64,000 nt of DNA from an uncultured virus (IMG/VR IMGVR_UViG_3300035698_018388) (lineage: Duplodnaviria; Heunggongvirae; Uroviricota; Caudoviricetes), in IMG/VR virus record IMGVR_UViG_3300035698_018388; one strand, 5' to 3'. Made by a program: the position numbers and the translations under genes. The notes beneath the pieces are model-generated. The model made no database searches, was not told where the DNA came from, and was given only the letters and a program-made list of their open reading frames with translations. Below, piece by piece: positions 43,908 through 59,980 of the stretch. Every line of letters starts with the position of its first letter. Within the stretch, counting starts at the first letter, position 1.

Positions 43908-44105
43908 TTAATGAATAGTCGGTTGTTCTCTTAAAAAATCTTCGTAATCTATATTCCTTTTTGCCATTACAATATTACAATTGGAGCACTTTATTAATAA
44001 TCCATCTTCGCTTTCTGTAACCATACCACAACCGCAATTAGGACAAGAGACGGTAAAGATTCTTTTTGCATCCAAGATATTAATGGGAACATTTTTAATA
44101 GCCAA
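43908..44105 (-). CDS. small zinc-ribbon protein
   Basis: CPNCG...CSNC; probable TTG start with GAGGAG RBS overlapping terminase stop. Confidence 0.5.
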   Translation of the reverse strand: MAIKNVPINILDAKRIFTVSCPNCGCGMVTESEDGLLIKCSNCNIVMAKRNIDYEDFLREQPTIH

Positions 44106-45804
44106 TTCCGCTTCTCCTCTTCCCACCGATCTTTTCGTATGCGATAACCTTATCGCCTTCATATACAGCAACGAGTTCTTCACCCTGTTTCATTTCCGGT
44201 TTCTCTAATGCCGTATTCTTATTCTCCCCTTCAACATGAACACGAATACCGAATACTTTCTTGGGCGCAGTTACCTTATTAAATGCTCCTGCTGATGAAT
44301 CCCATTGGTCTTTAAATTCGTAATTAGGAGCCTTTTCATGTTCATCAATAAACCCTCTATTCCAAGGAGCAATAAGGAGATACACTAATCCGTTATCAAC
44401 CGCTGCCTGATACGGTTCAGAACGGATTACTTTATTTCCTGTTACTCTTTCTGCTTCACTAAGTAAACCATTTTTAATAAGATTCTTCGTTGTCCTTTCT
44501 GCTGATTCTTTTCCTCCTGAACCCGGTTCCTGCTCATGCCATGTTTTAACATTTATATTTTTATAATAAGCATTACATAGAATAGCGAATGTTAATATTC
44601 GTTTTTCTCTTTTCGTATAATCCCATTGTCCTCTTTCAACACCTGCAACCAAAACATTCCCTGTCATTAATTGGAGCATAAAGATACCAGAGGAAAAATC
44701 TCCGCCACCTTCCGTTCCTGCTTTATCCCAATAAATTAATGCTTCCTTTACTAATGATTCATCAGGCATATCTTTCATGAACTTAAAATTTTCAACTTTA
44801 AAGATACCACCACCACGAGGAGAAGGTCGCTGCTGTAATTGACCTGCCCTTGAATACTCCGTCATCCGTGCTTCTCTCTTTTTTAACTTGCGATCAGGGA
44901 AACGACCCTTATCTAATTCTTCGCCTTCTTTCGTTCTGGGATCTTCAAACTGTAATGGTGTTCTTGTTTGTAAATTTAATTCTCTTTCCTTTTCAAAACG
45001 AGCAGGTAGTATTAAACGAACAACATCATTTCCGCTTTCAACATCCATTGCCTTTTCCATTACATGACCGCAAAGATCCATATAATGTGTTCGTTGTGCA
45101 ATAATTACATATGCTCCTGTATCTTCATCATCTAAACGAGTAGACATACTTTCATCCCACCAAACGTTTGTCTCCCCTCTGATTCTATCCGATTCAGCTT
45201 GCTTCACATTATGTGGATCATCGACAACTATTCTATCTCCACCTTCACCAGTTCCCATTCCACCAACAGATGTAGCAATACGATATCCTGTTTTGTTATT
45301 ATCGTATCTTGTTTTTTGGTTCTGATCAGAAGTTAGAGTAAAACGATCACCCCAATTATTCTGATACCAATCAGATTGTATAATTCTTCTTGATTTTAAT
45401 GCGTCTCTTGTAGAAAGATCTTGTGCATATGAGGAGTACACATAACGCATTGTAGGAAGGTTTCTCGGACCCCATTCCCATGTAGGCCAAAGAACTGAAA
45501 CACATAATGACTTCATATGACGAGGAGGAACGTTTATAATAAGATAATGGATTACTCCATTCGTAACCGCTTCAAGGTGTTCACAAATAGCATCTAAATG
45601 CCAGTTCCATATCAGCGGTTTCTTTGGCTCTAACAAAGGCCATGCTAATCTGGCATACTGTCTCAAAGACTTTTCCGCAAGAACCATTTCAACAAGAGCA
45701 ATAGATGGGATATTTTCTAATATCGCTCTACTCTGACTCTTGCTGATCGTCTTCGGTATTCGCCTTGTTATTGATCTTTTGGAGGATATCTGTAAAGTGT
45801 TCAA
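44095..45804 (-). CDS. terL: terminase large subunit
   Basis: INVPPRHMKS Walker A, IVVDDPH Walker B, YWDKA and DQWD nuclease motifs, QQ.P.P.GG.IFK; start uncertain. Confidence 0.95.
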   Translation of the reverse strand: MNTLQISSKRSITRRIPKTISKSQSRAILENIPSIALVEMVLAEKSLRQYARLAWPLLEPKKPLIWNWHLDAICEHLEAVTNGVIHYLIINVPPRHMKSLCVSVLWPTWEWGPRNLPTMRYVYSSYAQDLSTRDALKSRRIIQSDWYQNNWGDRFTLTSDQNQKTRYDNNKTGYRIATSVGGMGTGEGGDRIVVDDPHNVKQAESDRIRGETNVWWDESMSTRLDDEDTGAYVIIAQRTHYMDLCGHVMEKAMDVESGNDVVRLILPARFEKERELNLQTRTPLQFEDPRTKEGEELDKGRFPDRKLKKREARMTEYSRAGQLQQRPSPRGGGIFKVENFKFMKDMPDESLVKEALIYWDKAGTEGGGDFSSGIFMLQLMTGNVLVAGVERGQWDYTKREKRILTFAILCNAYYKNINVKTWHEQEPGSGGKESAERTTKNLIKNGLLSEAERVTGNKVIRSEPYQAAVDNGLVYLLIAPWNRGFIDEHEKAPNYEFKDQWDSSAGAFNKVTAPKKVFGIRVHVEGENKNTALEKPEMKQGEELVAVYEGDKVIAYEKIGGKRRSGIGY

Positions 45805-46354
45805 GTTCTTTACCTGTTAATGTTCTTAATGCTTCAAGAGTTATTTCTTTTATTCCCTGCCCAACATCGCCAGTTATATCCGCTTCTATTTTTAACTTTT
45901 CGTTGGTAACTTCTTCATCATGGATATTATAATTGCGGTTCTGTCCATATGTTTCTCGTGCTATTAATTCAAGATAACGAGCAGCAGCTTTCCAATCAGG
46001 ATTGGTTATCTTATTTACAGTTGTTATTTCTCTTCCTTTTGGCCCTCTTACTACTTTCTTTTCTTTAAACGAATGACCGCCTTTTGCTGCAAGACGTATG
46101 ATTTCAATTGCTTCTTTTTCCCGTTCATTTATAATTGATTTAACATTTCTCCTAAAACGATTGTGAAAGAAATCATTAGGGTCTCTTCCCTTTATCATCC
46201 AATCTCTAAAAGTAGCATATGTGATACCAGAAAGTTCAACTGCTCTTGTTAATGGAAGTTTTGCTTTCAATGAATCGTAAATGATTCTTTGGATTGCTCT
46301 GGTAAACTTTGATCGATTAGCTCTTGGATTCTTTCTTCTTGTTATTGCTCTCAT
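45728..46354 (-). CDS. terS: terminase small subunit
   Basis: HTH (A..LSGI...TF..W), DWKAAA.YLE motif, directly upstream of terL. Confidence 0.75.
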   Translation of the reverse strand: MRAITRRKNPRANRSKFTRAIQRIIYDSLKAKLPLTRAVELSGITYATFRDWMIKGRDPNDFFHNRFRRNVKSIINEREKEAIEIIRLAAKGGHSFKEKKVVRGPKGREITTVNKITNPDWKAAARYLELIARETYGQNRNYNIHDEEVTNEKLKIEADITGDVGQGIKEITLEALRTLTGKELEHFTDILQKINNKANTEDDQQESE

Positions 46355-46398
46355 TTTTCCTTTCCTTAACCCAAATACTTCTCATGTAATTTAATGAC

Positions 46399-46427
46399 AA
46401 TATATTCGTTATAATACCATATGACAA
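46399..46427 (-). promoter_or_regulatory. sigma70-type promoter for the morphogenesis arm
   Basis: TTGTCA-17bp-TATATT on minus strand about 45 nt upstream of terS; atgacaata occurs twice. Confidence 0.5.
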
Positions 46428-47188
46428 TAAAAAAGATTATAATTGCCTTTATTTGCGAAAAAGCATGTATAGAACGTAAAAAATATATTGATTATAGTAT
46501 ATATGGCCTCTTAAGTACCATTATACTTTTATTGTATTCTTTCAATTACTTCTATATAAGAACTGATAAGAACTCCTTTAATACCGGCTTTGAATAAAAA
46601 ACCGAAGAAAAGGGGAACAATGTGGTATTTTACTTAAATATACCCATGTTATATCACATTTTTATGCTATAAATACAGTAACTTAGCAAAATAGCTGAAT
46701 CCCCGATTAACAGGGACTAACAGAAGCCGCTTGCAATATGGCATAAAAACAGTCACTTATAGTCAGTTGCAGGTCCCCGATTGAAGGTACTTTACAAGCG
46801 GCATTTAATCCCTTATTCTATACGGCTTCGCATAGAAAGCGGCCCAATGATATCAGGGATCTACAGCGTTTTTAAAAGTTGCCATTTTCAATGGATCGAA
46901 ATGGGTTTTTTCAGTCCCTTTTGTAAACGAGCCATTGAAGCGGCTTTAGGTGGTGTTTTTTATGTTGTGAAGGCGCTTCAATCGGGGCTTTATGAAATTG
47001 GCTCTAAAAAACGTAAAATATGACGATTTATTGCATTTTTAGGCTGTTTTTAGCCTAAGTGACCGATATATAACGAAATAATAATTTTTTAAGGTGTTTT
47101 TAGGTCTTTGAATATCGTCAATGATTATAGTCAGTTAAAAACGGCGCTGCCTGGTAGCCGATCGGGGCATTTATGGCCTGTTTTTATG

Positions 47189-47216
47189 TTGCATACAGCA
47201 GCAGGGGATATATAAT
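47189..47216 (+). promoter_or_regulatory. sigma70-type early promoter
   Basis: TTGCAT-16bp-TATAAT. Confidence 0.5.
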
Positions 47217-47219
47217 GGT

Positions 47220-48078
47220 TGTGGTTCCGGGGTCCGGTGCCTTCACGCTCTTTACATAACGTTTTAATGATCGAATTTTTTAATGGCCTTTGCCGCTGGG
47301 TTTAATTTGTTGGTCGGCATTGGCTGCGCATCCCGCAAGTTGTCTTTTGGCCTTTACAGGTTTTTTCGGTTTGTATCGCGGGCGCTGTCTAAGCTTCTGG
47401 AAATCATTAAAACTTGGGATAACCTTTTCGGTGGCCTTGTTGCGAAACAATGCCGGATCTAATCGATCCCCTTTCAAAAGTAAAGTTTTTTAATCTTCTA
47501 CAGTAACCTCTGAGATACGGTGGGCGAATTCATTAGGTTGAAAGATTTTACCATAGACCCATTCAGTGAGCCATAATGTCAAATCCAAAAATCTACCTGT
47601 CCATAAACTTCATGCATACGAGGATGTTTTTCTTCTCCCAGATGCTATATGGAATTTTTGAAATGCGTGCCTGATTTATTTAGTAGGGAGCGTCCGCATT
47701 ATGCATATATCCCACAAGTCCATTTAAAAGTAACCGCGAAACGAGAATAGAGAAGGCGAATATCTTCAGTAGCCCCAAAATAAACAAGACGGCGAAAATA
47801 TGGATTATGGTTATGTTTTAAAACATGATGTTTGTACCGGGAAGAAAATAGCGTAGGTGAAGAAATTAAGTAGCCTCATGGCAAAACCAGTCAGGAAGTA
47901 AAGATTGAATCGAGTCCAGTTATTTTAAAGCCTCGGATCTTTGCTTTCTTAAAGATTGGCTCTTATAAGTCCGGGCGGCATTACAAAGCCAATTGATCGT
48001 TTTATTGGCACTTCATGTTTAAAGGCATAACTTAGGGATTCTCCTCCTCCTTAAAGATGGGACCGGGCAACCGGTCCC
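47220..48078 (+). ncRNA. putative large structured leader/ncRNA (~850 nt)
   Basis: No credible ORF; several hairpins (ttgtt-gcga-aacaa, ggatc/gatcc, agccataat/attatggtt); ends in gggaccgg-gcaa-ccggtccc. Confidence 0.45.
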
Positions 48079-48111
48079 TACCTTTTAAGTACACGATGGA
48101 AAGGAAATAAT

Positions 48112-48330
48112 ATGAAAAGATTTATTATTATGGCTACTGGAAAAAAAGAAGTTTACGGATACTCTAAAGTGATGTGTAATTTTATTTCTTTCCGACCGGG
48201 TCGTTTGAATATTTCAGAATGTAGTATCTTTGTTGAAAACGAAGTTGATAAAAAAGTTAATGCTCTTATGACCTTCTGGAATAACGTTCCTAATAGTGGT
48301 TATTCAGATATTAAAAAAATTGAAATATAA
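48112..48330 (+). CDS. hypothetical early protein
   Basis: AAGGA RBS; enclosed by 21 bp inverted repeat. Confidence 0.6.
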   Translation: MKRFIIMATGKKEVYGYSKVMCNFISFRPGRLNISECSIFVENEVDKKVNALMTFWNNVPNSGYSDIKKIEI

Positions 48331-48398
48331 ATTTTGCATCGTGTATTTAAAAGGTAGAATATCTTAAAAAAACAAAACCTAACAAGGAGGAGTTAAAA

Positions 48399-48674
48399 AT
48401 GATTAAGAAAACTATTAATGTTGAAGAATTAAAGAACATGGTAAATTCAAGACTTTTACATTCTTTAGATGACCACAAAGGAAAACGAGAAGGTCAAATT
48501 GATTTGATCGAAACCATTCTAATGAAAACTGGAAATTATAATGGCTACAATTTTTTGGATGCTGAAAAAATGAAAGGCTCCTCAAATGGCACTACCGTTG
48601 GTATTAAAGAACAAAAAGCAGACGGAAGTTGGAATTTTGACGATACCGACCACACCCGAATTTATTTTTATTAA
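48399..48674 (+). CDS. hypothetical early protein
   Basis: AAGGAGGAG RBS. Confidence 0.7.
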   Translation: MIKKTINVEELKNMVNSRLLHSLDDHKGKREGQIDLIETILMKTGNYNGYNFLDAEKMKGSSNGTTVGIKEQKADGSWNFDDTDHTRIYFY

Positions 48675-48683
48675 AAAAAAGTA

Positions 48684-48740
48684 TTTCTAATTTCATCGGT
48701 GCTTTACTTGAAAGGGTAAAGCACTCATTGAAGATAGAAA
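48684..48740 (+). repeat. type A intergenic stem (RNase III-like), copy 1
   Basis: tttctaatttcatcg-gtgctttac..gtaaagcac-tcattgaagatagaaa. Confidence 0.75.
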
Positions 48741-48770
48741 GTTAACGTAAAACAAATAAGGGGGAGAAAA

Positions 48771-48944
48771 ATGTTAAAAACAAGTACGAGAAAAACAAAG
48801 TATGGATACCGTGGATATGTTATTTGTTACAACGGCAAAAAAAGGTTATGGTGTGAAAGTGCAGGAATTGACAGGATCAAAAGAGAACATGCTCAAGAAG
48901 ATGCGAATTTGAGAAAAAAAGATAGAGAACAAACATGGGTTTAA
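48771..48944 (+). CDS. hypothetical early protein (57 aa)
   Basis: MLKTSTRKTKYGYRGY...; AAGGGGGAGAA RBS. Confidence 0.65.
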   Translation: MLKTSTRKTKYGYRGYVICYNGKKRLWCESAGIDRIKREHAQEDANLRKKDREQTWV

Positions 48945-48948
48945 TAAA

Positions 48949-49013
48949 TATCGAAACGGGGAGTAATCCCCGTCTATGTAAAGTGATTCTTTGCATACTG
49001 ACGAGATAAATCA
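48949..49013 (+). ncRNA. hammerhead ribozyme, type II (canonical core)
   Basis: tatc-GAAA-cgggga/tccccg-TC-tatgtaaag/ctttgcata-CTGACGA-gata; loop tgatt pairs with 3' aatca; predicted cut after 48974. Confidence 0.92.
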
Positions 49014-49039
49014 AACAACAATTAAATAAGGAGGAGAAA

Positions 49040-49549
49040 ATGATTACTTTAGAACAAGCAAAAAAACTTTCCAACGGACAAATTATTTTTCATGCAGTTG
49101 CAAAAAATGCCGATGGTTCTCCCATGAGATGGAGAGTAAACGGGATGGTGAAGTTGTGGAAGCGTAATCCCAAACGGATTCAGGTTCCTTTGAAGCATGG
49201 TCTCTATGATCACGGCTATCTGGTCGAATCGAATTTGAAAGAATTCTTTCTGACAGAAGAAAAAGTTAAAATGGCAGTTTGCTCCTGTGGTCTTCAATGG
49301 CAATGGGATTTTGATGTTGACACTTTCTTCTATGCCAACACGGATGAAGAAGTTAAAACGGTTGATTTGTTTCCCGATTCTGGTTCTGTTGAAGACGATG
49401 ACGATGAAATCCACGGCGTCACCGTTTATATCTGCTCTTGCGGAAAAGTAAATTCTGCTATTATTAATAATGGCGGGGCGACCGTCGTTCAGATCAAAGA
49501 ATGGGATAAGATCGATTGGGAAAATGATTTGAATTCGTACTGTTTCTAA
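49040..49549 (+). CDS. hypothetical early protein
   Basis: AAGGAGGAGAA RBS; stop lies inside type A stem. Confidence 0.75.
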   Translation: MITLEQAKKLSNGQIIFHAVAKNADGSPMRWRVNGMVKLWKRNPKRIQVPLKHGLYDHGYLVESNLKEFFLTEEKVKMAVCSCGLQWQWDFDVDTFFYANTDEEVKTVDLFPDSGSVEDDDDEIHGVTVYICSCGKVNSAIINNGGATVVQIKEWDKIDWENDLNSYCF

Positions 49550-49641
49550 TTTCATCGGTGGTTCAAGGATCAAAATGGGAGGGTAACAACTGATCACTTT
49601 ATTCTTCAATTAGATTCTTGAACCACTCATTGAAAATAGAA
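49543..49641 (+). repeat. type A intergenic stem, copy 2 (extended apical stem)
   Basis: Same base and tcg/tcat internal loop; gtggttcaagga/ttcttgaaccac upper stem. Confidence 0.75.
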
Positions 49642-49670
49642 GTTAACGTAAAACAAATAAGGAGGAGAAA

Positions 49671-49961
49671 ATGTTAAACAACTTTAAAAAAGTAAGAGAG
49701 TTTGATGACAACGATTGGGACGGTTTGGCTGGTGCTGAAAAATTTGAAGATGGAAGTCTTCCTGTAATTAGGGAAGCAACAAATTTTATGGCTATTGGTG
49801 ATGCAACCGGAATTGAAATTTATCTGGAGGCCGATGCCGAAAACAATTTTAATGTTTCAATCAAAACCAGTCAAAAAGTAATCGCAGCATTCATTGAAAA
49901 TATGGATGCCAATTTAACCGAAGAAAAACTTTTGGCAATGGGATTTAAAGCCGTTTATTAA
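49671..49961 (+). CDS. hypothetical early protein
   Basis: AAGGAGGAGAA RBS. Confidence 0.75.
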   Translation: MLNNFKKVREFDDNDWDGLAGAEKFEDGSLPVIREATNFMAIGDATGIEIYLEADAENNFNVSIKTSQKVIAAFIENMDANLTEEKLLAMGFKAVY

Positions 49962-49964
49962 AAG

Positions 49965-50045
49965 CGTATCAGGTCCTGAGCGGCAGGGGGTAGCAATACT
50001 CCCTGCGTTGCGATTAACGAAGTATGTCAGGACATACTTCAAAAA
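49965..50045 (+). ncRNA. pistol-like ribozyme, circularly permuted (P1 on the 3' side)
   Basis: P2 cgta, TCAGG, tcctga, GCG, P3 10 bp GNRA hairpin, GT, tgcg; then P1 gaagtatg/catacttc with loop tcagga, then AAAAA; predicted cut 50007/50008. Confidence 0.75.
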
Positions 50046-50060
50046 TAAGGAGGAGAAAAA

Positions 50061-50285
50061 ATGAAAGTTGATAAGAAAATAATTGATGCCGGAATATCAG
50101 AAAAGAAAATTGTTGCTCAGTTGGCCGTCATAGTCAAGAATATTGACAACCGACGTTTTCTATTCAAAAGAATTAAAAACCTTTATACGGCTAATCTGGT
50201 GGCTTATTACTATGCTGCCAGGACGTATGCGGATTGGAATTTATCAGCAGCAATCAGAACGGCAATTTTTGAAAGAGCACTTTAA
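50061..50285 (+). CDS. hypothetical early protein
   Basis: AAGGAGGAGAA RBS. Confidence 0.75.
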   Translation: MKVDKKIIDAGISEKKIVAQLAVIVKNIDNRRFLFKRIKNLYTANLVAYYYAARTYADWNLSAAIRTAIFERAL

Positions 50286-50342
50286 TTTCTGTTGTCTTCG
50301 GTGTCATATGTGAAAGCATATGACACTCATAGAAAATAGAAG
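50286..50342 (+). repeat. type A intergenic stem, copy 3
   Basis: tct-tcg-gtgtcatatg/catatgacac-tcat-aga, covarying with other copies. Confidence 0.75.
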
Positions 50343-50369
50343 TTAATATAAACATAAGGAGGAGAAAAG

Positions 50370-50603
50370 ATGAGAATGACAAAAGAACATTTTGCCGCCA
50401 TTAAAAAAGCAATGGATGAAACGATGAAGCGATATCCAAAAATGAAACAGGAATATAAAAAACAAAGTCTCAGCAAAATCCGCTATGCATGGGATATTTT
50501 CAATGCTTCTTTCCGATCAGATTATATTTGTAAATTTCTTTATCCATATTTAAACGATTCGCATATTCAAACAGCACTTCTTAAAATCGTAGGAGAATAT
50601 TAA
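50370..50603 (+). CDS. hypothetical early protein
   Basis: AAGGAGGAGAA RBS; R..WD...LY.YLND.HI.TAL. Confidence 0.75.
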   Translation: MRMTKEHFAAIKKAMDETMKRYPKMKQEYKKQSLSKIRYAWDIFNASFRSDYICKFLYPYLNDSHIQTALLKIVGEY

Positions 50604-50605
50604 AT

Positions 50606-50680
50606 CCTATTAGGTCTTGTGCTGGACAGGATTGCTCCTGTCCATTGGGTGAAACGTCAAGTGGCAAGAGACTTGACATA
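50606..50680 (+). ncRNA. permuted pistol-like element, divergent core
   Basis: ccta, TTAGG, tcttgt, GCT, P3 ggacagga/tcctgtcc, AT, tggg; P1 gtcaagt/acttgac loop contains gcaaga. Confidence 0.6.
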
Positions 50681-50707
50681 ACAATTAACTAAGGAGGAGA
50701 AAAGAAA

Positions 50708-50908
50708 ATGGCAAAAATGAAAATTGCATCGGACAATGTGAAGATGAATGTGGATGATGGAATCCTGACGATCAAAGTCAATTTGAAAAAAGACTTTGGT
50801 GAAAGCAAATCCGGGAAAACGATTATTGTTGCTTCTACTCTGGGCAACAAAAAAATCGAAGGAACGGAAATGACAATGGGATTGAACATCTACAAGTACG
50901 CTGAGTAA
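50708..50908 (+). CDS. small conserved hypothetical protein
   Basis: LTI.V.L....G.SKSGKT.IVAST.GN; AAGGAGGAGAA RBS. Confidence 0.8.
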   Translation: MAKMKIASDNVKMNVDDGILTIKVNLKKDFGESKSGKTIIVASTLGNKKIEGTEMTMGLNIYKYAE

Positions 50909-50966
50909 TTTCTGTTTTAACCAGTACTCTTAATCCTAAAATTAAGAGTACTCATGAAGATAGAAG
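50909..50966 (+). repeat. type A-related intergenic stem, copy 4
   Basis: tttctgtttt...agtactcttaat/attaagagtact-catgaagatagaa. Confidence 0.7.
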
Positions 50967-50997
50967 TTAAACAACAACAACAAACAAGGAGGAGAAA

Positions 50998-51243
50998 ATG
51001 AAAAAAGTAAAAGGAAGTGATCTTCGGTTACGAGATGAAATCAGAAGTTTTAATGATAGCCCTTACAACACATCAACCGTTATTAAAATTGAAGAACATT
51101 CTGTCCATTTGTTTCGGCCCTATGTTCACACTTCTGATTTTTCATCGACTGCCGGAGTAATCCCGTATGTTGGATTTGAAAACTATTCAATCGGTAAAAA
51201 TACGGAAGTTGAATTGCTTCGCAGGAACAAAGCTCCAAAATAG
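50998..51243 (+). CDS. hypothetical early protein
   Basis: AAGGAGGAGAA RBS. Confidence 0.75.
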   Translation: MKKVKGSDLRLRDEIRSFNDSPYNTSTVIKIEEHSVHLFRPYVHTSDFSSTAGVIPYVGFENYSIGKNTEVELLRRNKAPK

Positions 51244-51263
51244 ATTTCTACAGGGAGACAAAA

Positions 51264-51458
51264 ATGAAAAGCGATTTAAGCGGAATTTATTTTAATGGTT
51301 CTCCAATTGATCCTGATTGCTTTATCCCCAGAAATAAAGATACAAAAGAAATAATGGACTCCGCAATGGCAATCAAAAAAAGTATTTATCGGAAACCAAC
51401 AAAAAGATTCTCCTGTCAAGATGAAAAAGATGGGCCTTTAAAAATTATTCATTTCTAA
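51264..51458 (+). CDS. hypothetical early protein
   Basis: GGGAG RBS; stop inside type A stem. Confidence 0.6.
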   Translation: MKSDLSGIYFNGSPIDPDCFIPRNKDTKEIMDSAMAIKKSIYRKPTKRFSCQDEKDGPLKIIHF

Positions 51459-51508
51459 TTTCATCGGTGTCATACTTTGAGGAGTATGACACTCATTGAA
51501 AATAGAAG
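51452..51508 (+). repeat. type A intergenic stem, copy 5
   Basis: gtgtcatact/agtatgacac upper stem with conserved base. Confidence 0.75.
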
Positions 51509-51538
51509 TTAACCACAACAACATAAGGAGGAGAAAAA

Positions 51539-51853
51539 ATGTTAAGAAAATTTGAAAAAAGCGACTATGTGAAGTATCCCGGTGTTGAATCAAAAGACTG
51601 CCAAATTGACGACGATCTAAAAATGATGATAAAAGGTATAGAGTTCAAAGCCACTTTGCTTCGTGATGGATCATTAGTTCATCTTTATTGCTACAACGAA
51701 GATGGGAAAATGGTTCTAATGTATTATCGCAATGTTTCAACAAACAACTTCGCAGTTGAAGTTACAAAAGCTCTTTCGTCAATGTCGTCAATTACCGAAA
51801 ACTTTTTAATGACCGCTCTCGGTTTTGAAAAAAACACATACCGGTCTTTTTAA
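51539..51853 (+). CDS. hypothetical early protein
   Basis: AAGGAGGAGAA RBS. Confidence 0.75.
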   Translation: MLRKFEKSDYVKYPGVESKDCQIDDDLKMMIKGIEFKATLLRDGSLVHLYCYNEDGKMVLMYYRNVSTNNFAVEVTKALSSMSSITENFLMTALGFEKNTYRSF

Positions 51854-51866
51854 AAAGGAGTATAAG

Positions 51867-52031
51867 ATGGACAGGAAGCAAAAGCGGTTCATAAAGAAAA
51901 AAGTCAAGTCGCTTGGATCAAGATCGGAAGCCAAATTATTTTATCGGAGTAACGATGCCGTCAGCAAATTTGCAAATGATTTTGCTGAAGAAATCTTTCC
52001 GGTAGAAATCACAAGGAGAAAAAAGAAATGA
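51867..52031 (+). CDS. small basic protein ending in ITRRKKK
   Basis: AAGGAG RBS before ATG 51867. Confidence 0.6.
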   Translation: MDRKQKRFIKKKVKSLGSRSEAKLFYRSNDAVSKFANDFAEEIFPVEITRRKKK

Positions 52032-52198
52032 TTAACATGATTGCTTTAAAAAGTTATGATGACAAAATGCACGTTTCCAATTTTAAAGACCGAGAAAAGG
52101 CATTTGAAAAGGCACAAGAGCTAATTGATACCGGACAGGGATTGCAAGTAATCCTTCTTTGCGATTCTGAAATTATCTTTAATGAAAACAGTTTCTAA
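52028..52198 (+). CDS. hypothetical protein (56 aa)
   Basis: ATGA coupling, AAGGAG RBS; stop inside type A stem. Confidence 0.6.
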   Translation: MINMIALKSYDDKMHVSNFKDREKAFEKAQELIDTGQGLQVILLCDSEIIFNENSF

Positions 52199-52248
52199 TT
52201 TCATCGGTGCTTTACTTGAAAGAGTAAAGCACTCATTGAAGATAGAAA
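52192..52248 (+). repeat. type A intergenic stem, copy 6
   Basis: Near-identical to copy 1. Confidence 0.75.
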
Positions 52249-52275
52249 ACAATAACAAACCATAAGGAGGAGAAA

Positions 52276-52521
52276 ATGAAACTATCAGAATTTTTTAATG
52301 ACCTTTCAACTATTTTCTTTAAACATGGAGATCTTGATTTAAAGTTTAAAATTTTTCATCCAGAATGCCCAATCAATAACGAAACGGTTGCAAAGGAAGG
52401 AACTCTTTTACTTCCAATAGATACGGATGAAATAATTGAAAATGTCCATCTTGGAAACGGAAACAAAAAAGAAAGAGTAACACCAGCAACACAATTAACA
52501 ATAGTAATTGAATGTAAATAG
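52276..52521 (+). CDS. hypothetical early protein
   Basis: AAGGAGGAGAA RBS. Confidence 0.75.
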   Translation: MKLSEFFNDLSTIFFKHGDLDLKFKIFHPECPINNETVAKEGTLLLPIDTDEIIENVHLGNGNKKERVTPATQLTIVIECK

Positions 52522-52591
52522 TGTCGAAACGGGGAGCCTAACGTTCCCCTTCTATGTAAAGTGATTCTTTGCATATTGATAAGACAAATCA
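52522..52591 (+). ncRNA. hammerhead ribozyme, type II (U3-A8 core variant)
   Basis: tgtc-GAAAc-ggggagc/gttcccc-tTC-stem I-TTGATAA-gaca-aatca; predicted cut after 52552. Confidence 0.82.
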
Positions 52592-52622
52592 ATTTTATTC
52601 ATAATTAACTAAGGAGGAGAAA

Positions 52623-54077
52623 ATGGAAAACAAAGCAAAAGAAATCGTCAGCTACCTAAGAGCGGGATTTTCAACATTCTGGATTCCAACGGCTGAACCA
52701 ATGAGATTAGAATCTTATATCCAACCGATCATTGAAGACTTTGAATCCAAAGCGGGAGACAAGTGGAATGTGAAATCGTGGCGATGCACCATTGACAACG
52801 GGACTCCGGAAGACAAAGATCCGGTGAAGTTTTTAAATAAACTTTCAAATGATGACTCCCCGGAAGGAACTGTCTTTTTCCTTCACAACTTCAATTGGTT
52901 CATCGAAAAGAATAAGCTGCTTGTCCAAATTATTCAGGACCAGTCTCCGGTCTGGGCGAGTCAGGGAAAAGCGATTGTTGTTATTTCTCAAAGTGCAAGT
53001 ATCCCGGTTGAATTGCAAAAGTTTTTTTGTTTATTGAAATTAGATCTGCCGAATGAAGAAGAAATAATTAAATCGGTAGAAAAGATTTCTTCGGCAATTC
53101 CAAATGCAAAACCGGATAAAAAATGCCTTCCAAAAATTGTCAATGCTGCTAAGGGATTAACGTTAAATGAAATTGAAAACGTTTTCTCTTTATCACTTGT
53201 CGAAAAGAGTGCAATCGCACCGGAAGTGATTAACAGTTACAAAGCCCAAATGATTGCCAAAACGGGATTTCTGGAAGTTATTCCGCCGACAAGAAATTTT
53301 TCTTCAATTATCGGTTACGATAGCTGGAAGCAATTTACTCTTGAAACGGGTCGTGACCCACGGAGTAAAGGTTCTCTTTTGATTGGTCATCCGGGAACCG
53401 GCAAGACCATGTTGCTTTATGGAACTGCCGGTGAGTTTCCAGACAAGTCTACCGTAAAACTTGTTATTGGAAAACTCTTTTCAAAATTTGTTGGTGAAAC
53501 GGATGCGAATGTTGATTACGTTATTGATTTCCTAACAGCAATCGGTAATTGCAATTTAATTATTGACGAATTCGAGAAGCAATTCTCGGGCGTTGGTGGT
53601 TCTGACGATGGAACGGGTGGAACAACTATCCGGGCAAATTCCAGATGGCTTGACTTTCTTCAATTCAGACCACCGGGAATTAATGTTTATGGAACCGCAA
53701 ACTCTGTTCGTGGTATTCCACCGGAGTACTTAAGAGCCGGTCGTTGGGATGTTGCTCCCTTTTTCGTTGGATTGCCTTCTGATAATGTTAAAGGAGAAAT
53801 CCTAAATCATTATCTGAAAATTAATGAAATGAAAAAACCGGCTGCTTCTTTAATCCCGAAGATGGAAAAATGGGCTGGATGCGATATTGAAGCATGTTGC
53901 AATCTGGCAAGTATGCGGAGCATTTCATTAATTGAAGCCTCTAAGTTTATCAGGCCTCAGGCATTAACGATGAAAAGGGAAATTGACGAGTTAGAAAGTT
54001 GGGCAAAGGATCGGTGCATCCCTGCTGAAGATGCTCCCGTATCAACGCCCATAAAGAGACGGAAGTTAGCGATCTAA
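52623..54077 (+). CDS. AAA+ ATPase, Ycf46/SpoVK-like
   Basis: GHPGTGKT Walker A, LIIDEFEK Walker B, PPE.LR.GRWD, SK.VGET. Confidence 0.9.
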   Translation: MENKAKEIVSYLRAGFSTFWIPTAEPMRLESYIQPIIEDFESKAGDKWNVKSWRCTIDNGTPEDKDPVKFLNKLSNDDSPEGTVFFLHNFNWFIEKNKLLVQIIQDQSPVWASQGKAIVVISQSASIPVELQKFFCLLKLDLPNEEEIIKSVEKISSAIPNAKPDKKCLPKIVNAAKGLTLNEIENVFSLSLVEKSAIAPEVINSYKAQMIAKTGFLEVIPPTRNFSSIIGYDSWKQFTLETGRDPRSKGSLLIGHPGTGKTMLLYGTAGEFPDKSTVKLVIGKLFSKFVGETDANVDYVIDFLTAIGNCNLIIDEFEKQFSGVGGSDDGTGGTTIRANSRWLDFLQFRPPGINVYGTANSVRGIPPEYLRAGRWDVAPFFVGLPSDNVKGEILNHYLKINEMKKPAASLIPKMEKWAGCDIEACCNLASMRSISLIEASKFIRPQALTMKREIDELESWAKDRCIPAEDAPVSTPIKRRKLAI

Positions 54078-54137
54078 TTTCTATTTTAACGCTTGCCTTT
54101 GATTTTAGGAGGTCAAGGGCAATCATGAAAATAGAAA
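54078..54137 (+). repeat. type A-related intergenic stem, copy 7
   Basis: tttctatttt...ttgcctttgat/gtcaagggcaa-tcatgaaaatagaaa. Confidence 0.7.
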
Positions 54138-54192
54138 ATGAAAATTTCAAAACCGTGTTATAATATTAATATCAACCCATAAGGAGGAGAAA

Positions 54193-54360
54193 ATGAAAAA
54201 GGCAATTGGAAAAAAAGAAATTATTGAAATTTTTGAATTCGATCCAAAATGGAGAAAAGACGGAACAAGTCTACCACTTTGCCGACATCTTCGCCGTCTT
54301 CTCCCCGCTTACAAAAAAGAAAATGGATACCGAATTGAAATTACAGAAGTTAAACCTTAA
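54193..54360 (+). CDS. hypothetical protein (55 aa)
   Basis: MKKAIGKKEIIEIFEF...; AAGGAGGAGAA RBS. Confidence 0.7.
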   Translation: MKKAIGKKEIIEIFEFDPKWRKDGTSLPLCRHLRRLLPAYKKENGYRIEITEVKP

Positions 54361-54429
54361 CAGCAGATAGCCATTAGGATCTGTGCGGTAGCAAGTAATT
54401 GGAAGATTACTTGCTACGTTGGCTAAAAA
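54361..54429 (+). ncRNA. pistol-like element lacking P1, copy 1
   Basis: gcagat, agcca, TTAGG, atctgt, GCG, P3 gtagcaagtaat/attacttgctac, GT, tggct; predicted cut 54418/54419. Confidence 0.65.
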
Positions 54430-54464
54430 TTTTATTAATGTAAAAACAAAATAAGGAGGAGAAA

Positions 54465-54689
54465 ATGAAAAAAATTGTAATCACTCTTGGCAAGAACGGT
54501 TCTAAGAAAGTTGAAACTTTTGGTTTCAGCGGCCCGAGTTGTAAAGAGCAAACCGGCTTTCTAAATAATATTTTTGGCGCTCCTGTAGAATCGGAGTTAA
54601 AACCAGAATTTTATGAAGAAAACGAAACGGAGTCTAACGTAATGTTAGATGTTCACGGACTGCCTGAAGGTGGCCGCTTTTGCGGATAA
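54465..54689 (+). CDS. DUF2997-like protein
   Basis: I.I....G...V...GF.G.SC...T.......G......LKPEFY. Confidence 0.8.
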   Translation: MKKIVITLGKNGSKKVETFGFSGPSCKEQTGFLNNIFGAPVESELKPEFYEENETESNVMLDVHGLPEGGRFCG

Positions 54690-54735
54690 AAAAATCTTTA
54701 AAAAATATAATCCGTTATCCAAAAGGAGAAAAGAA

Positions 54736-55107
54736 ATGAGCCATATTTCAACTTTTTCTGAAAGAATCAAAAACGTCAAGAAGCTTGTAGAGATTGCAAA
54801 AAAATGTGGTTATGAAGTAAAAGAAGATGTGACCGTAACCATGTTCGGTTCTCAAAAGGTTTTTAATGCCGTCTCTATTTCACTCCCCAAATGGGGATAT
54901 CCGGTTGCCATTAGTTCTGTTGGAGACGTTCTTTATGATTTCTTCGGCGCTGAAAAAGGACCGGGGGTTTTTGAACAGCTTGGCAGTCTTGTCCAAAATT
55001 ACAATGAAGCAATTGTAATGGATGAAATTCAGTATGATTGCATCACAAGCGTCGATACCATAGAAAACAAAACCACCGGAGATCGTGTCATTACAATCAC
55101 AATCTAA
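54736..55107 (+). CDS. DUF1257/Ycf35-like protein
   Basis: MSHIST..., LP.W.YPV, YD...G...L..L.Q.Y; AAGGAG RBS. Confidence 0.75.
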   Translation: MSHISTFSERIKNVKKLVEIAKKCGYEVKEDVTVTMFGSQKVFNAVSISLPKWGYPVAISSVGDVLYDFFGAEKGPGVFEQLGSLVQNYNEAIVMDEIQYDCITSVDTIENKTTGDRVITITI

Positions 55108-55167
55108 TTTCTGTTTTAACGCTTGCCTTTGATTTAAGGAGGTCAAAGGCAATCATGAAGATAGAAG
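55108..55167 (+). repeat. type A-related intergenic stem, copy 8
   Basis: Near-identical to copy 7. Confidence 0.7.
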
Positions 55168-55202
55168 TTAATATTAACACAACACCAAACAAGGAGGAGA
55201 AA

Positions 55203-55502
55203 ATGGAAAAGAAATTTGCACAATCAATTTTGGATGCTGCCGAAATAAGAGAAGAATCTTATGATAATGTTGCAGCAGAAACAGCATCAAGAAAAGAAAA
55301 GTATCCAGATTTTTCAACATATTATCGGAAGACGATTGTAAAATCGGCGGAAGAATCTTGCAAGAAAAACAAGATTAATGAAGCCTTTGCAGAAGTCATC
55401 GATTGGGCTTTGTATTCCCATTGGAATGACATCATCGATTGGGCTCAACGAATTCTTGGAAAAGTTAATGCCCATGAGAAAAAAAAGAATAACAATTTCT
55501 AA
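55203..55502 (+). CDS. hypothetical early protein
   Basis: AAGGAGGAGAA RBS before ATG 55203. Confidence 0.75.
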   Translation: MEKKFAQSILDAAEIREESYDNVAAETASRKEKYPDFSTYYRKTIVKSAEESCKKNKINEAFAEVIDWALYSHWNDIIDWAQRILGKVNAHEKKKNNNF

Positions 55503-55550
55503 TTTCTTCGGTGCCGTAACTTCGGTTATGGCACTCATAGAAAATAGAAG
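55496..55550 (+). repeat. type A intergenic stem, copy 9 (cUUCGg loop)
   Basis: gtgccgtaac-ttcg-gttatggcac. Confidence 0.75.
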
Positions 55551-55580
55551 TAAACAACAACAACATAAGGAGGAGAACCG

Positions 55581-55931
55581 ATGAGAACTAAAATTGCAAG
55601 AAACGAATGTCTTTTCTGTAATTTGTTTAATGGTTTTGTATGCGAATGGGGGAATTCCGAAGATTGGAAGTTTGTCTTCCATAACCACATGACCAAGTCG
55701 ATGATCGATGACTCCCTCCAGAAATGCCGCTTGGTCACGGAGGCAAACAGGATCACGGATACCAGAATCAAGATCGAAAGGTTCTGGGGATTCAAAATAA
55801 ACAAACAGGTCGGTCCCAAAAGAACGTTCCTGTTCATTGCCCCGTTATATGTCAAACTGATTAAGGAGTATATCACCAATTTCGCTTTCACAATTCCCGT
55901 TCACTTCTGGAAAATGAAATCCAATTTCTAA
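55581..55931 (+). CDS. hypothetical early protein
   Basis: AAGGAGGAGAA RBS. Confidence 0.7.
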   Translation: MRTKIARNECLFCNLFNGFVCEWGNSEDWKFVFHNHMTKSMIDDSLQKCRLVTEANRITDTRIKIERFWGFKINKQVGPKRTFLFIAPLYVKLIKEYITNFAFTIPVHFWKMKSNF

Positions 55932-55981
55932 TTTCATCGGTGTCATACTTTGAGGAGTATGACACTCATTGAAGATAGAAA
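55925..55981 (+). repeat. type A intergenic stem, copy 10
   Basis: Near-identical to copy 5. Confidence 0.75.
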
Positions 55982-56006
55982 ACAACAACAACATAAGGAG
56001 GAGAAA

Positions 56007-56270
56007 ATGAAATTTTTAACGTGCAAAGAAAGAATGGAAAAAATAAGAAAAATAAAAGATGAAGCAAAAAAACCAATCGAATGCAAAAGCTGCGGAATGG
56101 AAATTTCAAGAACGGCAAAAACCTGCCCCTATTGCGGAGAATTGGCATCAGGTGAAAAGGTAGCCCAAGCAGGGAAGGCAATGATCTTCTTCGGTTTGGG
56201 ATTTATCGGTGTAATTGGGTTAGTTGCATTTGGATTAATTATTTTTGCAATTATATTTGGGAATGTATAG
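56007..56270 (+). CDS. zinc-ribbon membrane protein
   Basis: C.SCG.EIS..A..CPYCG plus C-terminal TM; AAGGAGGAGAA RBS. Confidence 0.75.
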   Translation: MKFLTCKERMEKIRKIKDEAKKPIECKSCGMEISRTAKTCPYCGELASGEKVAQAGKAMIFFGLGFIGVIGLVAFGLIIFAIIFGNV

Positions 56271-56272
56271 GG

Positions 56273-56342
56273 TGTCGAAACGGGGAGCGTTATGCTCCTC
56301 TTCTATGTAAAGTGATTCTTTACATATTGATAAGACAAATCA
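56273..56342 (+). ncRNA. hammerhead ribozyme, type II (U3-A8 variant)
   Basis: Stem III ggggagc/gctcctc, stem I tatgtaaag/ctttacata; predicted cut after 56303. Confidence 0.82.
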
Positions 56343-56377
56343 AAAGCAACTAACAGCTAACTAAGGAGGAGAAAAAA

Positions 56378-56803
56378 ATGGAAAACAAAGCAAAAGAAAA
56401 AAAACCGAAAAAAGGAACAATCAAAAAGAAAAGAATGCCAATTATTAAAAACAAAAAAGATGAATTTATGGCGATTGTAAAAAGGATTCAATCGGCCAGT
56501 CCAAAAGAACTCGATCAGTTAAAAGAAGACATTGGTGTTTTAACTGATCAGATTGAAGAAAAAGAAAGTGGCCTTGCCGAAATAAAAGAAATGACACTTG
56601 AAGCAGAAAAGGCATTTGTAAAAGCCAAAAAAATCTTTGAAAGGATTACCCAAAACGGGGATAAATTTTTCAAAGACAAAAAAGGACCAATCAATTCGGA
56701 TATAATCAATTTCCTTTTCACCGAACAAGAACATGATACAATCAAAGAGTATTTATATACAATCGAAGAGTTGTTCGATTTTTACGCTACCTTGACAGAT
56801 TAG
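56378..56803 (+). CDS. hypothetical coiled-coil protein
   Basis: AAGGAGGAGAA RBS. Confidence 0.75.
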   Translation: MENKAKEKKPKKGTIKKKRMPIIKNKKDEFMAIVKRIQSASPKELDQLKEDIGVLTDQIEEKESGLAEIKEMTLEAEKAFVKAKKIFERITQNGDKFFKDKKGPINSDIINFLFTEQEHDTIKEYLYTIEELFDFYATLTD

Positions 56804-56875
56804 TGTCGAAACGGCGAGGGCAAGACCCTCGCCTTCTATGTAAAGTGATTCTTTGCATATTGATAAGACAAATCA
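56804..56875 (+). ncRNA. hammerhead ribozyme, type II (U3-A8 variant)
   Basis: Stem III ggcgaggg/ccctcgcc; predicted cut after 56836. Confidence 0.82.
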
Positions 56876-56913
56876 ATTTTATTAACGTAACAATTAAATA
56901 AGGAGGAGAACCA

Positions 56914-58014
56914 ATGAAGTTAATCGGATTTGGTAGTACAGTAAAAGGAACAGCAATTCATGGGATTATGGGGATTCGTGAAGGGGTAAAGAAAAATTCT
57001 GCTCTTTGCGATAAAAGAATCGTCGGGCTTATTATCGACAAGGGTTTGACTGCCGAAATGGTAACTTGCAAAAAGTGTTTAAAGAAGGCCTCTATCTTAA
57101 AAGGGGAAAAACCCAAAAAGAAAGCACCGGACAAAAAAGCACTTTCGCAAACAACTCCTGTTCCGGCAAAGAAGACTCCAGCACCGGTAAAGGAAACGGC
57201 TAAGAAGCCACCTATAAAGCCCAAGGCAACACCCAAAACACCGGTCAAGCCCAAAACCAAACCGGTCAAAAAAGCACCGGTTAAAAAGGCACCTGCTAAA
57301 AAAGCATCTGCTGCTGTTCCACCGAAAACAAAGCAAAAACAAATTGAACTACCGCTGAAGGCTTTAAATGAATTCAAACTCGATCAACAATCAACAAACG
57401 GTTTATTTTTTATAACTCATACTCCATCTGAAAAAGTCTTCTTCAAAAACATTGAAGCCGGTCTCGCAACCGAAATTTTGAAAATTGTAAATCAACTGAC
57501 CGTCGGTTGGAATGGGAAAGAAAGTCTTCCCAAGGAATTTCGGTCTTCCGTTCTTACTGCATTTAAACAGGCTCATGTAAATTTGGAATTGGCCCTGCCA
57601 ACAAAATTTGAAGAACGGGAAGAAAAGGAACAAAATGATGAACCGCCGAAAATAACAAGACGGGGAGTCAAAAAAGGTAATTCCAAAACGGAAACGAAAA
57701 TAACAAGACGCCATGCAAAAAAAAGATCAACTGTTAATATTGATCAGCCGATTACAAGGAGAAAAAGGACTCCAACAAAGGTTGTCCGGCACTTCTTACA
57801 TTATGGAGGACAACTTACATCTGTTCTGGTTGAACTGGTAACCGAATTTGGGTTTACCGAAACCAGAGCACAAGCAAAATTCAAATCTATTCTCCGGAAA
57901 ATAACCAGAATACAAAGAAGAACGGTCGTTCATACCATAACAAATCACCCGTTAAACGACCACTACATTTTTTTACCGTCAAGAAAATTACCGGAAGATG
58001 AAGCTAAGGAATAA
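56914..58014 (+). CDS. basic protein with Lys/Pro/Ala-rich (histone H1-like) linker and ITRR repeats
   Basis: PAKK/PVKK repeats, N-terminal Cys cluster, three ITRR motifs. Confidence 0.75.
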   Translation: MKLIGFGSTVKGTAIHGIMGIREGVKKNSALCDKRIVGLIIDKGLTAEMVTCKKCLKKASILKGEKPKKKAPDKKALSQTTPVPAKKTPAPVKETAKKPPIKPKATPKTPVKPKTKPVKKAPVKKAPAKKASAAVPPKTKQKQIELPLKALNEFKLDQQSTNGLFFITHTPSEKVFFKNIEAGLATEILKIVNQLTVGWNGKESLPKEFRSSVLTAFKQAHVNLELALPTKFEEREEKEQNDEPPKITRRGVKKGNSKTETKITRRHAKKRSTVNIDQPITRRKRTPTKVVRHFLHYGGQLTSVLVELVTEFGFTETRAQAKFKSILRKITRIQRRTVVHTITNHPLNDHYIFLPSRKLPEDEAKE

Positions 58015-58021
58015 ACCTTAA

Positions 58022-58089
58022 CAGCAGATAGCCATTAGGATCTGTGCGGTAGTACTCAATTGGAGGACTGAGTACTGCGTTGGCTAAAA
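58022..58089 (+). ncRNA. pistol-like element lacking P1, copy 2
   Basis: Core identical to 54361 copy, different P3 (gtagtactca/tgagtactgc); predicted cut 58079/58080. Confidence 0.65.
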
Positions 58090-58119
58090 TAAATTAATAA
58101 ACAACATAAGGAGGAGAAA

Positions 58120-59605: not shown

Positions 59606-59980
59606 ATGAAGGTAGTAAAAGCCTCAAATTATCAATCCGCATATGCCGTTCTAACCGGAAGGTGGTTGCGGATAAACACGATAGAATCAACATTTGATAG
59701 AGATGAAGAAAACGGCCAAATATTACCCTCTAAAATTGAAAGTCCTGAAAAAACATTATTAAAAAAAGAAGCATTTGAATTATTATCTGCCGAAGCCAAA
59801 GAAATAATAAATACCATTTTAAATGGCCCCGAAGAAATTCTCGATCTATTTGCAAGTCCTGTCGAAAAGAAAATAAATAAGAGGAGAATCACAAAGTACT
59901 ACTGTGATCAATGGAATTCAAAATTAATTGTCAACTCTGTTATTGCCGAGATAAAGGAATGGACACAAAACCTCAAATAA
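59606..59980 (+). CDS. hypothetical protein (possible DNA-binding)
   Basis: ORF abutting upstream stop; LS.EAKEII helix. Confidence 0.6.
   Translation: MKVVKASNYQSAYAVLTGRWLRINTIESTFDRDEENGQILPSKIESPEKTLLKKEAFELLSAEAKEIINTILNGPEEILDLFASPVEKKINKRRITKYYCDQWNSKLIVNSVIAEIKEWTQNLK

Follow-up and report, generated by a model that had tools for sequence, protein, structure and literature searches.

Our analysis of a 64,000-nucleotide (nt) stretch of DNA from an uncultured Caudoviricetes virus (IMG/VR record IMGVR_UViG_3300035698_018388), referred to here as the window, revealed a short pyrimidine tract, TTCTCCTCCTCCTTAA (48039..48054, plus strand), that is complementary to the ribosome-binding site (RBS) of the phage's early genes. 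The tract is kept in three related phages, where it changes together with the RBS of each phage, and it stands immediately before the first hairpin or ribozyme of the early array. This complementarity forms the conserved core of the finding. The reading that we prefer, with about even confidence, is that the tract is an anti-RBS mask acting in cis at the 3' end of a long untranslated early leader, and that its action is coupled to processing of the transcript.

Within the tract, TTCTCCTCC (48039-48047) is the reverse complement of GGAGGAGAA, and a second complementary sequence, CTCCTCCTTA, is located at 48044-48053. GGAGGAGAA occurs 21 times in the window, compared to an expectation of 0.39 (standard deviation 0.63), and none of 100 shuffled sequences reached this count. 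Eighteen copies lie on the plus strand between 49030 and 60219, and 17 of these stand 1-7 nt 5' of an ATG (span 49030..58118), with 15 of the 17 reading TAAGGAGGAG; the 18th copy (60219) is away from any start. These 17 array RBSs are possible targets in trans; duplexes between them and the leader are predicted. The other minus-strand copies are found within minus-strand open reading frames (ORFs), at 6658 in ORF 5969-7066 and at 37592 in ORF 37368-38072, so that 48039-48047 is the only intergenic inverted copy. An earlier note on this DNA, made from the letters alone, had claimed that the loop of a leader hairpin is the complement of an RBS found at 17 downstream sites and that further complementarity lies beyond that loop, and both claims were borne out. 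It was also correct, as a statement about the sequence, that the AGAA tail of the shared RBS differs from the standard 16S complement.

The argument rests on four phages, namely the window and three relatives. L018 is a 65-kb IMG/VR contig whose ATPase-like protein is 56% identical and whose TerL is 63-65% identical to those of the window, L019 is an 83-kb IMG/VR contig (ATPase-like protein 42% identical) taken together with L123, a short metagenome contig that is ~97% identical to the L019 leader, and G002:C1 is a phage-like contig of 83 kb that was binned in a metagenome-assembled genome (MAG; ATPase-like protein 46% identical). In L018, TCTCCTCCTCCTTAA is identical at 15 of 15 positions inside an otherwise unalignable 1.7-kb gap. 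The gaps of the window and L018 have only four short collinear blocks in common, comprising a T-rich repeat, TCTCCTCCTCCTTAA and the two arms of an inverted repeat, and no alignable stretch of >41 nt was found elsewhere. Across the three relatives, whose ATPase-like proteins are 42-56% identical, the tract takes the form (T)CTCCTCCTT(A) on the early-gene strand, reading TTCTCCTCCTTA in G002:C1 and CCTCCTCCTT in L019 and L123, and the only 9- and 10-mers common to at least three of the four leaders are TCCTCCTTA and CTCCTCCTTA. The strand is thus that of the early genes in all four phages. The position is likewise constant: in the window, L018 and G002:C1 the first hairpin or ribozyme of the array lies 4-10 nt 3' of the tract, and in L019 a predicted hairpin abuts it. 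The G002:C1 tract is separated by 9-10 nt from a Hammerhead_II ribozyme downstream (Rfam RF02276; L137 2583-2661, minus strand; 46.1 bits, gathering score 37), and of the six type II hammerheads in this phage, one 5' of each early gene, the tract precedes the first only. A hammerhead beside the tract is seen in G002:C1 alone; the window has a hairpin and a 24-bp stem instead.

The tract was found to follow the RBS of the phage that carries it. In each of the four phages it equals the reverse complement of that phage's own array RBS consensus plus one GGA/GAG unit: the reverse complement of the tract is TTAAGGAGGAGGAGAA for a consensus of TAAGGAGGAGAA in the window, TTAAGGAGGAGGAGAT for AAGGAGGAGAA in L018, CAAGGAGGAGGAC for CAAGGAGGAC in L019 and TAAGGAGGAGAA for AAGGAGAA in G002:C1. 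Covariation in related phages had been proposed as a check in the earlier note, and in this comparison the tract is both kept and tracks the local RBS in four of four phages. Complementarity flanking the Shine-Dalgarno (SD) sequence is extensive in L019, where the match extends to ~20 pairs and covers the start codon, is present in G002:C1 and is slight in the window. The duplex of the L019 tract with its own RBSs averages -27.3 kcal/mol and is the best in both its row and its column of the cross-phage matrix. In the window, predicted duplexes of the leader with the array RBSs range from -17.4 to -22.4 kcal/mol, compared to a mean of -11.6 for 49 late-gene start candidates; the same sites give ~-11.8 with a generic 16S-tail yardstick.

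The sequence 3' of the tract can also pair. Directly adjoining it is a G+C-rich hairpin, GGGACCGG-GCAA-CCGGTCCC (48059..48078, plus strand), and L018 has a different 10-bp stem at the same place, likewise perfect, with a loop of 37 nt. There follows a 25-nt inverted repeat with 92% complementarity, the 5' arm of which (48078..48102, plus strand) is a candidate double-strand RNase site, while the 3' arm (48333..48357, plus strand) overlaps a promoter-like TTTGCA-16-TAGAAT. Pairing is possible at 24 of the 25 positions, position 12 being a G.T. When the window is compared with L018, this repeat is found to have kept its outer 12 bp, and its inner 12 bp are altered on both sides, with pairing and the same G.T retained, so the stem co-varies around a pair that is G.U in plus-strand RNA and would be A.C on the minus strand. 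The loop between the arms holds a 72-aa ORF (48112..48330, plus strand) that has no PHROG match and whose weak RBS overlaps the 5' arm. The arms in L018 are 17 nt apart and enclose no ORF; the ORF of the window therefore looks like an insertion into a hairpin loop. The same short distance in L018 rules out the repeat as an invertible DNA segment. A terminator consensus scan listed 48059-48088, where the hairpin is followed by TACCTTTTAA, containing only four T's that are part of the 5' arm of the conserved stem, and no terminator was found at the equivalent place in G002:C1 and L019.

Several of these features favour action of the tract on the plus, or early-gene, strand. The hammerhead of G002:C1, if it is working, dictates that plus-strand transcription begins at or before the tract, which lies 9-10 nt upstream of it. 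In the window, L018 and G002:C1, terL and terS run leftward, followed by the gap and then by the early array running rightward, but the layout of L019 differs, with helicase and primase genes on the same strand before the gap and no minus-strand gene within 5 kb. To these are added the G.T of the neighbouring stem and the predicted promoters. The best sigma-70-like promoter of the gap in the window, TTGCAT-16-TATAAT (47189..47216, plus strand), is a prediction only and implies a leader of ~820 nt. The best or near-best predicted plus-strand site of this type is 822 nt upstream of the tract in the window and 412-598 nt upstream in the relatives. It reads TTTACT-16-TATAAT in L019 and TTGCAT-16/17-TAT[AG]AT in the other three phages. 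No consistent minus-strand promoter was found to the right of the tract in the four phages, and the best minus-strand sites adjoin terS. Finally, the minus-strand mini-ORF beside the tract is not conserved. In the window this ORF (MPLNMKCQ; 48002..48028, minus strand; eight codons and a stop) has its ATG 10 nt after GAGAA, and in G002:C1 an ATG opens nine codons of unrelated peptide, whereas L018 is without ATG, GTG or TTG at this place and L019 has ATT only. The possibility, raised earlier as one that would undo the proposal, that the tract is the plain RBS of a minus-strand peptide consequently fails, as the mini-ORF is not conserved and L019 has no nearby minus-strand genes, which makes an ordinary minus-strand RBS unlikely.

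The partner of the tract on this strand was sought by folding each phage from the tract through its first strong RBS. In all four folds the tract pairs with that RBS and the processing element is enclosed. In the minimum free energy (MFE) structure of the window, 48044-48052 pairs with 48384-48392 (plus strand) through nine contiguous pairs (p 0.62-0.79); the predicted cis partner, AAGGAGGAG, is the RBS of the gene at 48399..48674 (plus strand), the first early gene with a strong early-type RBS. This pairing encloses the G+C-rich hairpin and the stem 48079-48102/48333-48356, with ORF 48112-48330 in the loop of the stem. In G002:C1, three nested segments with 16 pairs in total surround the hammerhead and extend its open stem II (p ~0.6). 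The L019 fold has 8 + 7 pairs around a long hairpin, in two registers of ~0.5 each, and the L018 fold has eight pairs with the first real RBS and four with a nearer AGGA (p 0.65-0.84). Of all the leader windows compared (1139 in the window and 994, 654 and 658 in the other phages), the one with the tract is the best partner for that RBS. A conserved upstream partner that would sequester the tract was also considered and was present in L018 only. The window and its three relatives thus all have complementarity between the tract and a same-strand RBS on the same predicted transcript, and this complementarity has been maintained in evolution in all four, with a caveat for G002:C1 that is discussed below.

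Our reading of the tract as a cis-acting mask takes together the folds that pair the tract with the RBS around a processing element, the order of elements, which matches that of engineered switches, and a likeness to the icaR mRNA of Staphylococcus aureus. Under this model the tract would pair during transcription, in cis, with the first strong early-type RBS (in the window, 48044-48052 with 48384-48392). The pairing would close a domain that contains the G+C-rich hairpin and the 24-bp stem, with ORF 48112-48330 in the loop, and would hide the RBS. A cut within the enclosed element would then part the mask from the message. In G002:C1 the hammerhead would make this cut; in the window and L018 the long stem would presumably be cut by a double-strand RNase. 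One outcome would be an RBS that is freed, as in the engineered anti-RBS/ribozyme switches; another would be a leader fragment with a 3' hairpin that survives and can pair with the identical RBSs of other genes in the array. The tract may thus possibly be released by cleavage to act in trans. The predicted anatomy favours pairing in cis with the first strong RBS and is compatible with action in trans after cleavage.

A number of observations weigh against this reading. Only four phages were compared, and two of them are similar in this region. The margins by which the tract is the best partner are small, at -18.1 compared to -16.7 elsewhere in the window and -19.2 compared to -18.5 in L018, and the folding result is weak when taken alone because energy models pair any C-rich tract with the nearest strong SD. 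In the window the RBS predicted as partner belongs to the second gene, not the first, and lies 330 nt from the tract; the duplex with the weak RBS of the first gene reaches -7.4. In L018 the tract has a strong upstream partner in its own leader (-18.6), with which it is predicted to pair when downstream sequence is omitted. The tract of G002:C1 suits the window-type RBS (-22.6) better than its own shorter RBS (-15.6), so that the conserved core may be a general anti-SD sequence and not a mask matched to each RBS. Read on the minus strand, the G002:C1 tract is an SD at good spacing from an ATG that follows it. The leaders upstream of the tract are without a folding signal, L018 excepted; as a candidate structured RNA, the 400 nt before the tract gave z-scores of -0.16, -0.43 and +0.42, and L018 alone gave -2.9. 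Lastly, L140, a more distant relative whose TerL is 54% identical and whose early RBSs are of the same type, has neither CCTCC nor CTCCT in its gap or array on the early strand.

The proposal of the earlier note was of a tract displayed in the loop of a small hairpin in the leader and active in trans only, where it would serve as the seed of a small RNA that shuts off all processed early mRNAs, or host mRNAs, together, and this we consider quite unlikely. The letters can form the hairpin (48032..48054, plus strand), as 48032-48038 (TTAGGGA) can pair with 48048-48054 (TCCTTAA) through seven pairs, including one G.T, around the 9-nt loop TTCTCCTCC. This part of the proposal stands, but the structure is marginal: the MFE structure of a 136-nt context includes it and the centroid does not, the tract pairs with varying partners in three further contexts, where its unpaired probability averages 0.39-0.50, and an equivalent 7-bp stem is present in none of the three relatives. 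The local stem gives way to long-range pairing once the downstream RBS is included in the fold. A C-rich seed held in a stable and conserved loop, as in RNAIII and RsaE, was accordingly not found here. No c4 antisense RNA or other Rfam family was detected in the window at the gathering score, and low-score matches over the tract (SIB_RNA, 18.2 bits compared to a gathering score of 56, and lysM-Prevotella; E up to 10) were rejected as chance level. The trans proposal does draw on the duplexes predicted with the 17 array RBSs, which are stronger than the late-gene mean, on the stable hairpin that follows the tract in the window, L018 and G002:C1, a typical layout of seed and 3' hairpin, and on C-rich SD-binding motifs, which are described as established for S. 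aureus RNAIII and RsaE (PMC3868564). Against this, one leader copy is made per transcript bearing at least 17 targets, so that titration requires differential stability, and the partner suggested both by the flanking complementarity of L019 and G002:C1 and by the way the pairing nests symmetrically around the first element is the first RBS, in cis. A related proposal joins the two modes of action: the cut at the first element would free a stable small RNA, consisting of the tract and the hairpin, which would accumulate and pair with at least 17 early RBSs as an RNA-only timer ending the early class. We regard this as unlikely. Phage T4 reaches the same end, shut-off of the early class, through the RegB nuclease, which cuts early SD sequences. 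If true, a small-RNA timer coupled to processing by a ribozyme or RNase III would be the first concrete role for clustered phage ribozymes.

Two further explanations place the function of the tract elsewhere. In one, which we hold to be rather unlikely, it is the minus strand that is functional, with TTAAGGAGGAGGAGAA serving either as a landing site for the 30S subunit of the stabilizing SD (STAB-SD) type, guarding the leftward terS/terL message, or as the RBS of a tiny leader ORF. The left flank of the gap is occupied by minus-strand terS and terL in the window, L018 and G002:C1, G002:C1 has an SD, 9 nt and an ATG with nine codons in addition to the eight-codon ORF of the window, the extra GGA unit would offer two 30S registers, and a STAB-SD that binds 16S rRNA without initiating is described as established in Bacillus (PMC4113751). 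However, L019 keeps the tract beside the array without any minus-strand gene within 5 kb, and the candidate ORFs vary in presence, length and sequence, with an ATG in two of four phages; that of the window stands 10 nt beyond GAGAA. The best minus-strand promoters are near terS rather than to the right of the tract; a promoter in the mirrored arm would start within the conserved hairpin and would leave its co-variation unexplained, and the G.T pairs of the neighbouring stem become A.C on that strand. The tract also travels with the array and not with terS, and to the right of it in G002:C1 the minus strand reads the hammerhead in antisense. The other explanation, which we judge very unlikely, is a site at the level of DNA, protein or Rho, such as a polypurine/polypyrimidine tract, part of a promoter or a C-rich site for Rho loading, with the complementarity to the RBS being incidental or the product of an inverted duplicate of a leader unit. 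Rho binds C-rich unstructured leader RNA, the gap has other DNA-level signals in the form of iteron-like T-rich repeats in common with L018, and the L019 tract resembles an inverted whole RBS leader in which ATG has become ATT. Yet as part of a promoter the tract was rejected, since its offset from the candidate -35 and -10 hexamers differs between phages: it follows the -10 in the window, but in G002:C1 it falls between the two hexamers. The rule of own RBS plus one unit, together with the flanking complementarity, is unexpected for a protein or Rho site, and a neutral inverted relic would not remain identical at 15 of 15 positions amid unalignable surroundings.

The arrangement proposed for the cis mask has parallels in described systems. 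In engineered hammerhead switches (the Ogawa and Maeda designs), the ribozyme is described as cutting off an anti-RBS and so freeing the RBS (PMC5621056). The order of anti-RBS, ribozyme and RBS is common to these switches and the phages, and G002:C1 matches it exactly, a natural type II hammerhead being its ribozyme. The switches are artificial and gated by a ligand, whereas the phage arrangement is natural with no ligand domain seen, its enclosed element varies between a hammerhead, long stems and another hairpin, and its residual duplex (9-20 bp) may be so stable that it does not separate unaided. No natural phage arrangement of anti-RBS and ribozyme was described among the full-text literature matches listed, a set that does not cover subscription journals. 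In S. aureus, the UCCCCUG of the icaR 3' untranslated region pairs with the SD of its own mRNA, blocks 30S loading and makes an RNase III site, and the authors leave action in cis or in trans open (PMC3868564). The phage tract is likewise a pyrimidine anti-SD that lies outside coding sequence on the (here predicted) transcript carrying its target; in contrast to the 3' location on a single-gene bacterial mRNA, it lies in the 5' leader of a multi-gene phage array and its target is common to all genes. A relation in sequence between the two was not found, nor was one looked for. The c4 antisense RNA is reportedly (Citron and Schuster 1990) excised from the leader of the transcript whose icd RBS region it targets. 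It belongs to the operon c4-icd-ant of phages P1/P7 (PMC8198154). The tract resembles c4 in being proposed as a leader-encoded RNA acting on an RBS region downstream in its own operon; c4 is a structured Rfam family with one target and a role in the lysogenic immunity of a temperate phage, whereas the tract matches no Rfam family at the thresholds applied. Clustered hammerheads were found to flank single genes in prophages by Perreault et al. (2011), who leave their function open, and the term 'Shine-Dalgarno' does not occur in the main text (PMC3088659). The early arrays described here are similarly predicted to be cut into gene-length units, with six type II hammerheads in G002:C1, although the first element of the window is not a hammerhead.

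A likeness to the Bacillus STAB-SD (PMC4113751) lies in the presence of an SD-type sequence in an untranslated region that does not start a protein. A STAB-SD is read in the sense direction near the 5' end of the mRNA that it stabilizes, while the SD sense of the tract is on the minus strand, opposite to the array, and L019 has no minus-strand gene within 5 kb and so nothing there to stabilize. In the tract-less locus L140 (reverse strand, ~10224-10295), TTGATT-17-TATAAT is followed ~25 nt later by AAAGGAGGTGATC in the sense direction with no start codon, which looks STAB-SD-like and would stand at the 5' end of the early leader of L140.

The window is phage DNA with minus-strand genes from ~3948 to 46354, ending with terL (44095-45804) and terS (45728-46354), and small plus-strand genes from 48112 on, with an ATPase-like gene (52623-54077) and a helicase gene (59911-61350) farther right. 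The gap between terS and the early array (46355-48111, 1.76 kb) is without a convincing ORF, and the tract lies at its right edge. No tRNA was found in the window. The DNA of the window is present in salt-lake metagenome runs, no RNA run being among those listed as containing it, and contigs from four DNA runs covering 46400-49400 were identical at the tract, with 48104 G>A as the sole nearby change; there is thus no population variation that could be used. An identical 12.5-kb fragment (G001) stops short of the gap. A blastn search of 46300-48400 against public phage records gave no match, the closest public phage records by TerL protein are <60% identical, and a scan by TerS protein gave no close relatives. 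The 169-aa and 72-aa early proteins as queries returned unrelated loci only, without the array. An exact 15-mer scan of IMG/VR gave 98 matches, of which, as judged by eye, one had the context in common (L077, the L018 contig); the others were ordinary RBSs, coding sequence or unrelated repeats. A metagenome scan gave six short contigs, and L123 was the only one that reached the leader. Among 80 loci from a TerL scan, the tract was found in the L018 contig only, the match in L140/L141 being inside a gene.

Our study also revealed further candidate processing elements between the early genes. A hammerhead type II-like unit at 48953-49004 (plus strand) has an intact core, comprising GAAAC, a 5-bp hairpin, GTC, a 9-bp hairpin and CTGACGA, and its loop UGAUU can pair with a downstream AAUCA, as in a known pseudoknot; Rfam at E up to 10 did not report this unit. 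Copies at ~52545-52592, before 56365 and before 56902 have mutated cores. Sub-threshold matches to the Pistol ribozyme lie between early genes in the window (49946-50012 and 54367-54423, plus strand) and in L018 (9891-9943 and 11428-11484, plus strand), scoring 24.2-29.1 bits compared to a gathering score of 34.5, with most of the conserved core letters aligned. Long imperfect hairpins also occur between early genes on the plus strand, at 48683-48780, 49544-49642, 50282-50364, 51448-51548 and 52188-52288. These repeated intergenic hairpins read TTTCTAATTTCATCGGTG ... CACTCATTGAA[AG]ATAGAA, and their upper stems vary between copies yet stay paired; their appearance is that of sites for a double-strand RNase or of a ribozyme not yet recognised.

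Iteron-like T-rich repeats of the TTTTTAGGCTGTTTTTA type were seen in the window (47018-47103 and 47167-47186), L018 (~6050-6106) and G002:C1 (L137 reverse, ~5741-5790). In the window they lie just upstream of the best predicted plus-strand promoter, and one block is identical to L018 at 17 of 18 positions; they may represent an origin, a packaging site or operators. The ~450-nt leader of L019 (5957-6400) and L123 (1-450) is ~97% identical, with all eight of the eight substitutions being transitions, and the first genes then diverge; folding z-scores for the L019/L123 leader showed no structure. G002:C1 (L137 and L138) is binned in a MAG of Desulfobacteraceae and is phage-like by its terL, early array and six hammerheads. 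The opening 100 nt of this contig are found again 177 nt from its end, which suggests a terminal repeat or a circular genome. Among the 15-mer matches, one 244-kb IMG/VR contig (L022, L053, L067, L097 and L098) has five copies of TTAAGGAGGAGGAG-ATG-TTT-TAA, as read on the SD strand, followed by an A/T-rich hairpin, a unit that places a strong RBS on a two-codon ORF and is repeated across a very A+T-rich large phage.

In summary, if the preferred reading of the tract as a cis-acting mask is true, a conserved anti-RBS, matched to each phage's own RBS and placed before the first ribozyme or processing stem, would point to translation at the head of the early operon being controlled through cleavage. 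Since 2011, single phage genes have been known to be flanked by self-cleaving ribozymes without an assigned function (PMC3088659), and the tract offers a testable role for these ribozymes. The arrangement would be a natural counterpart of the synthetic anti-RBS/ribozyme switches, and it may add a further phage case to the control of an entire gene class by RNA alone.

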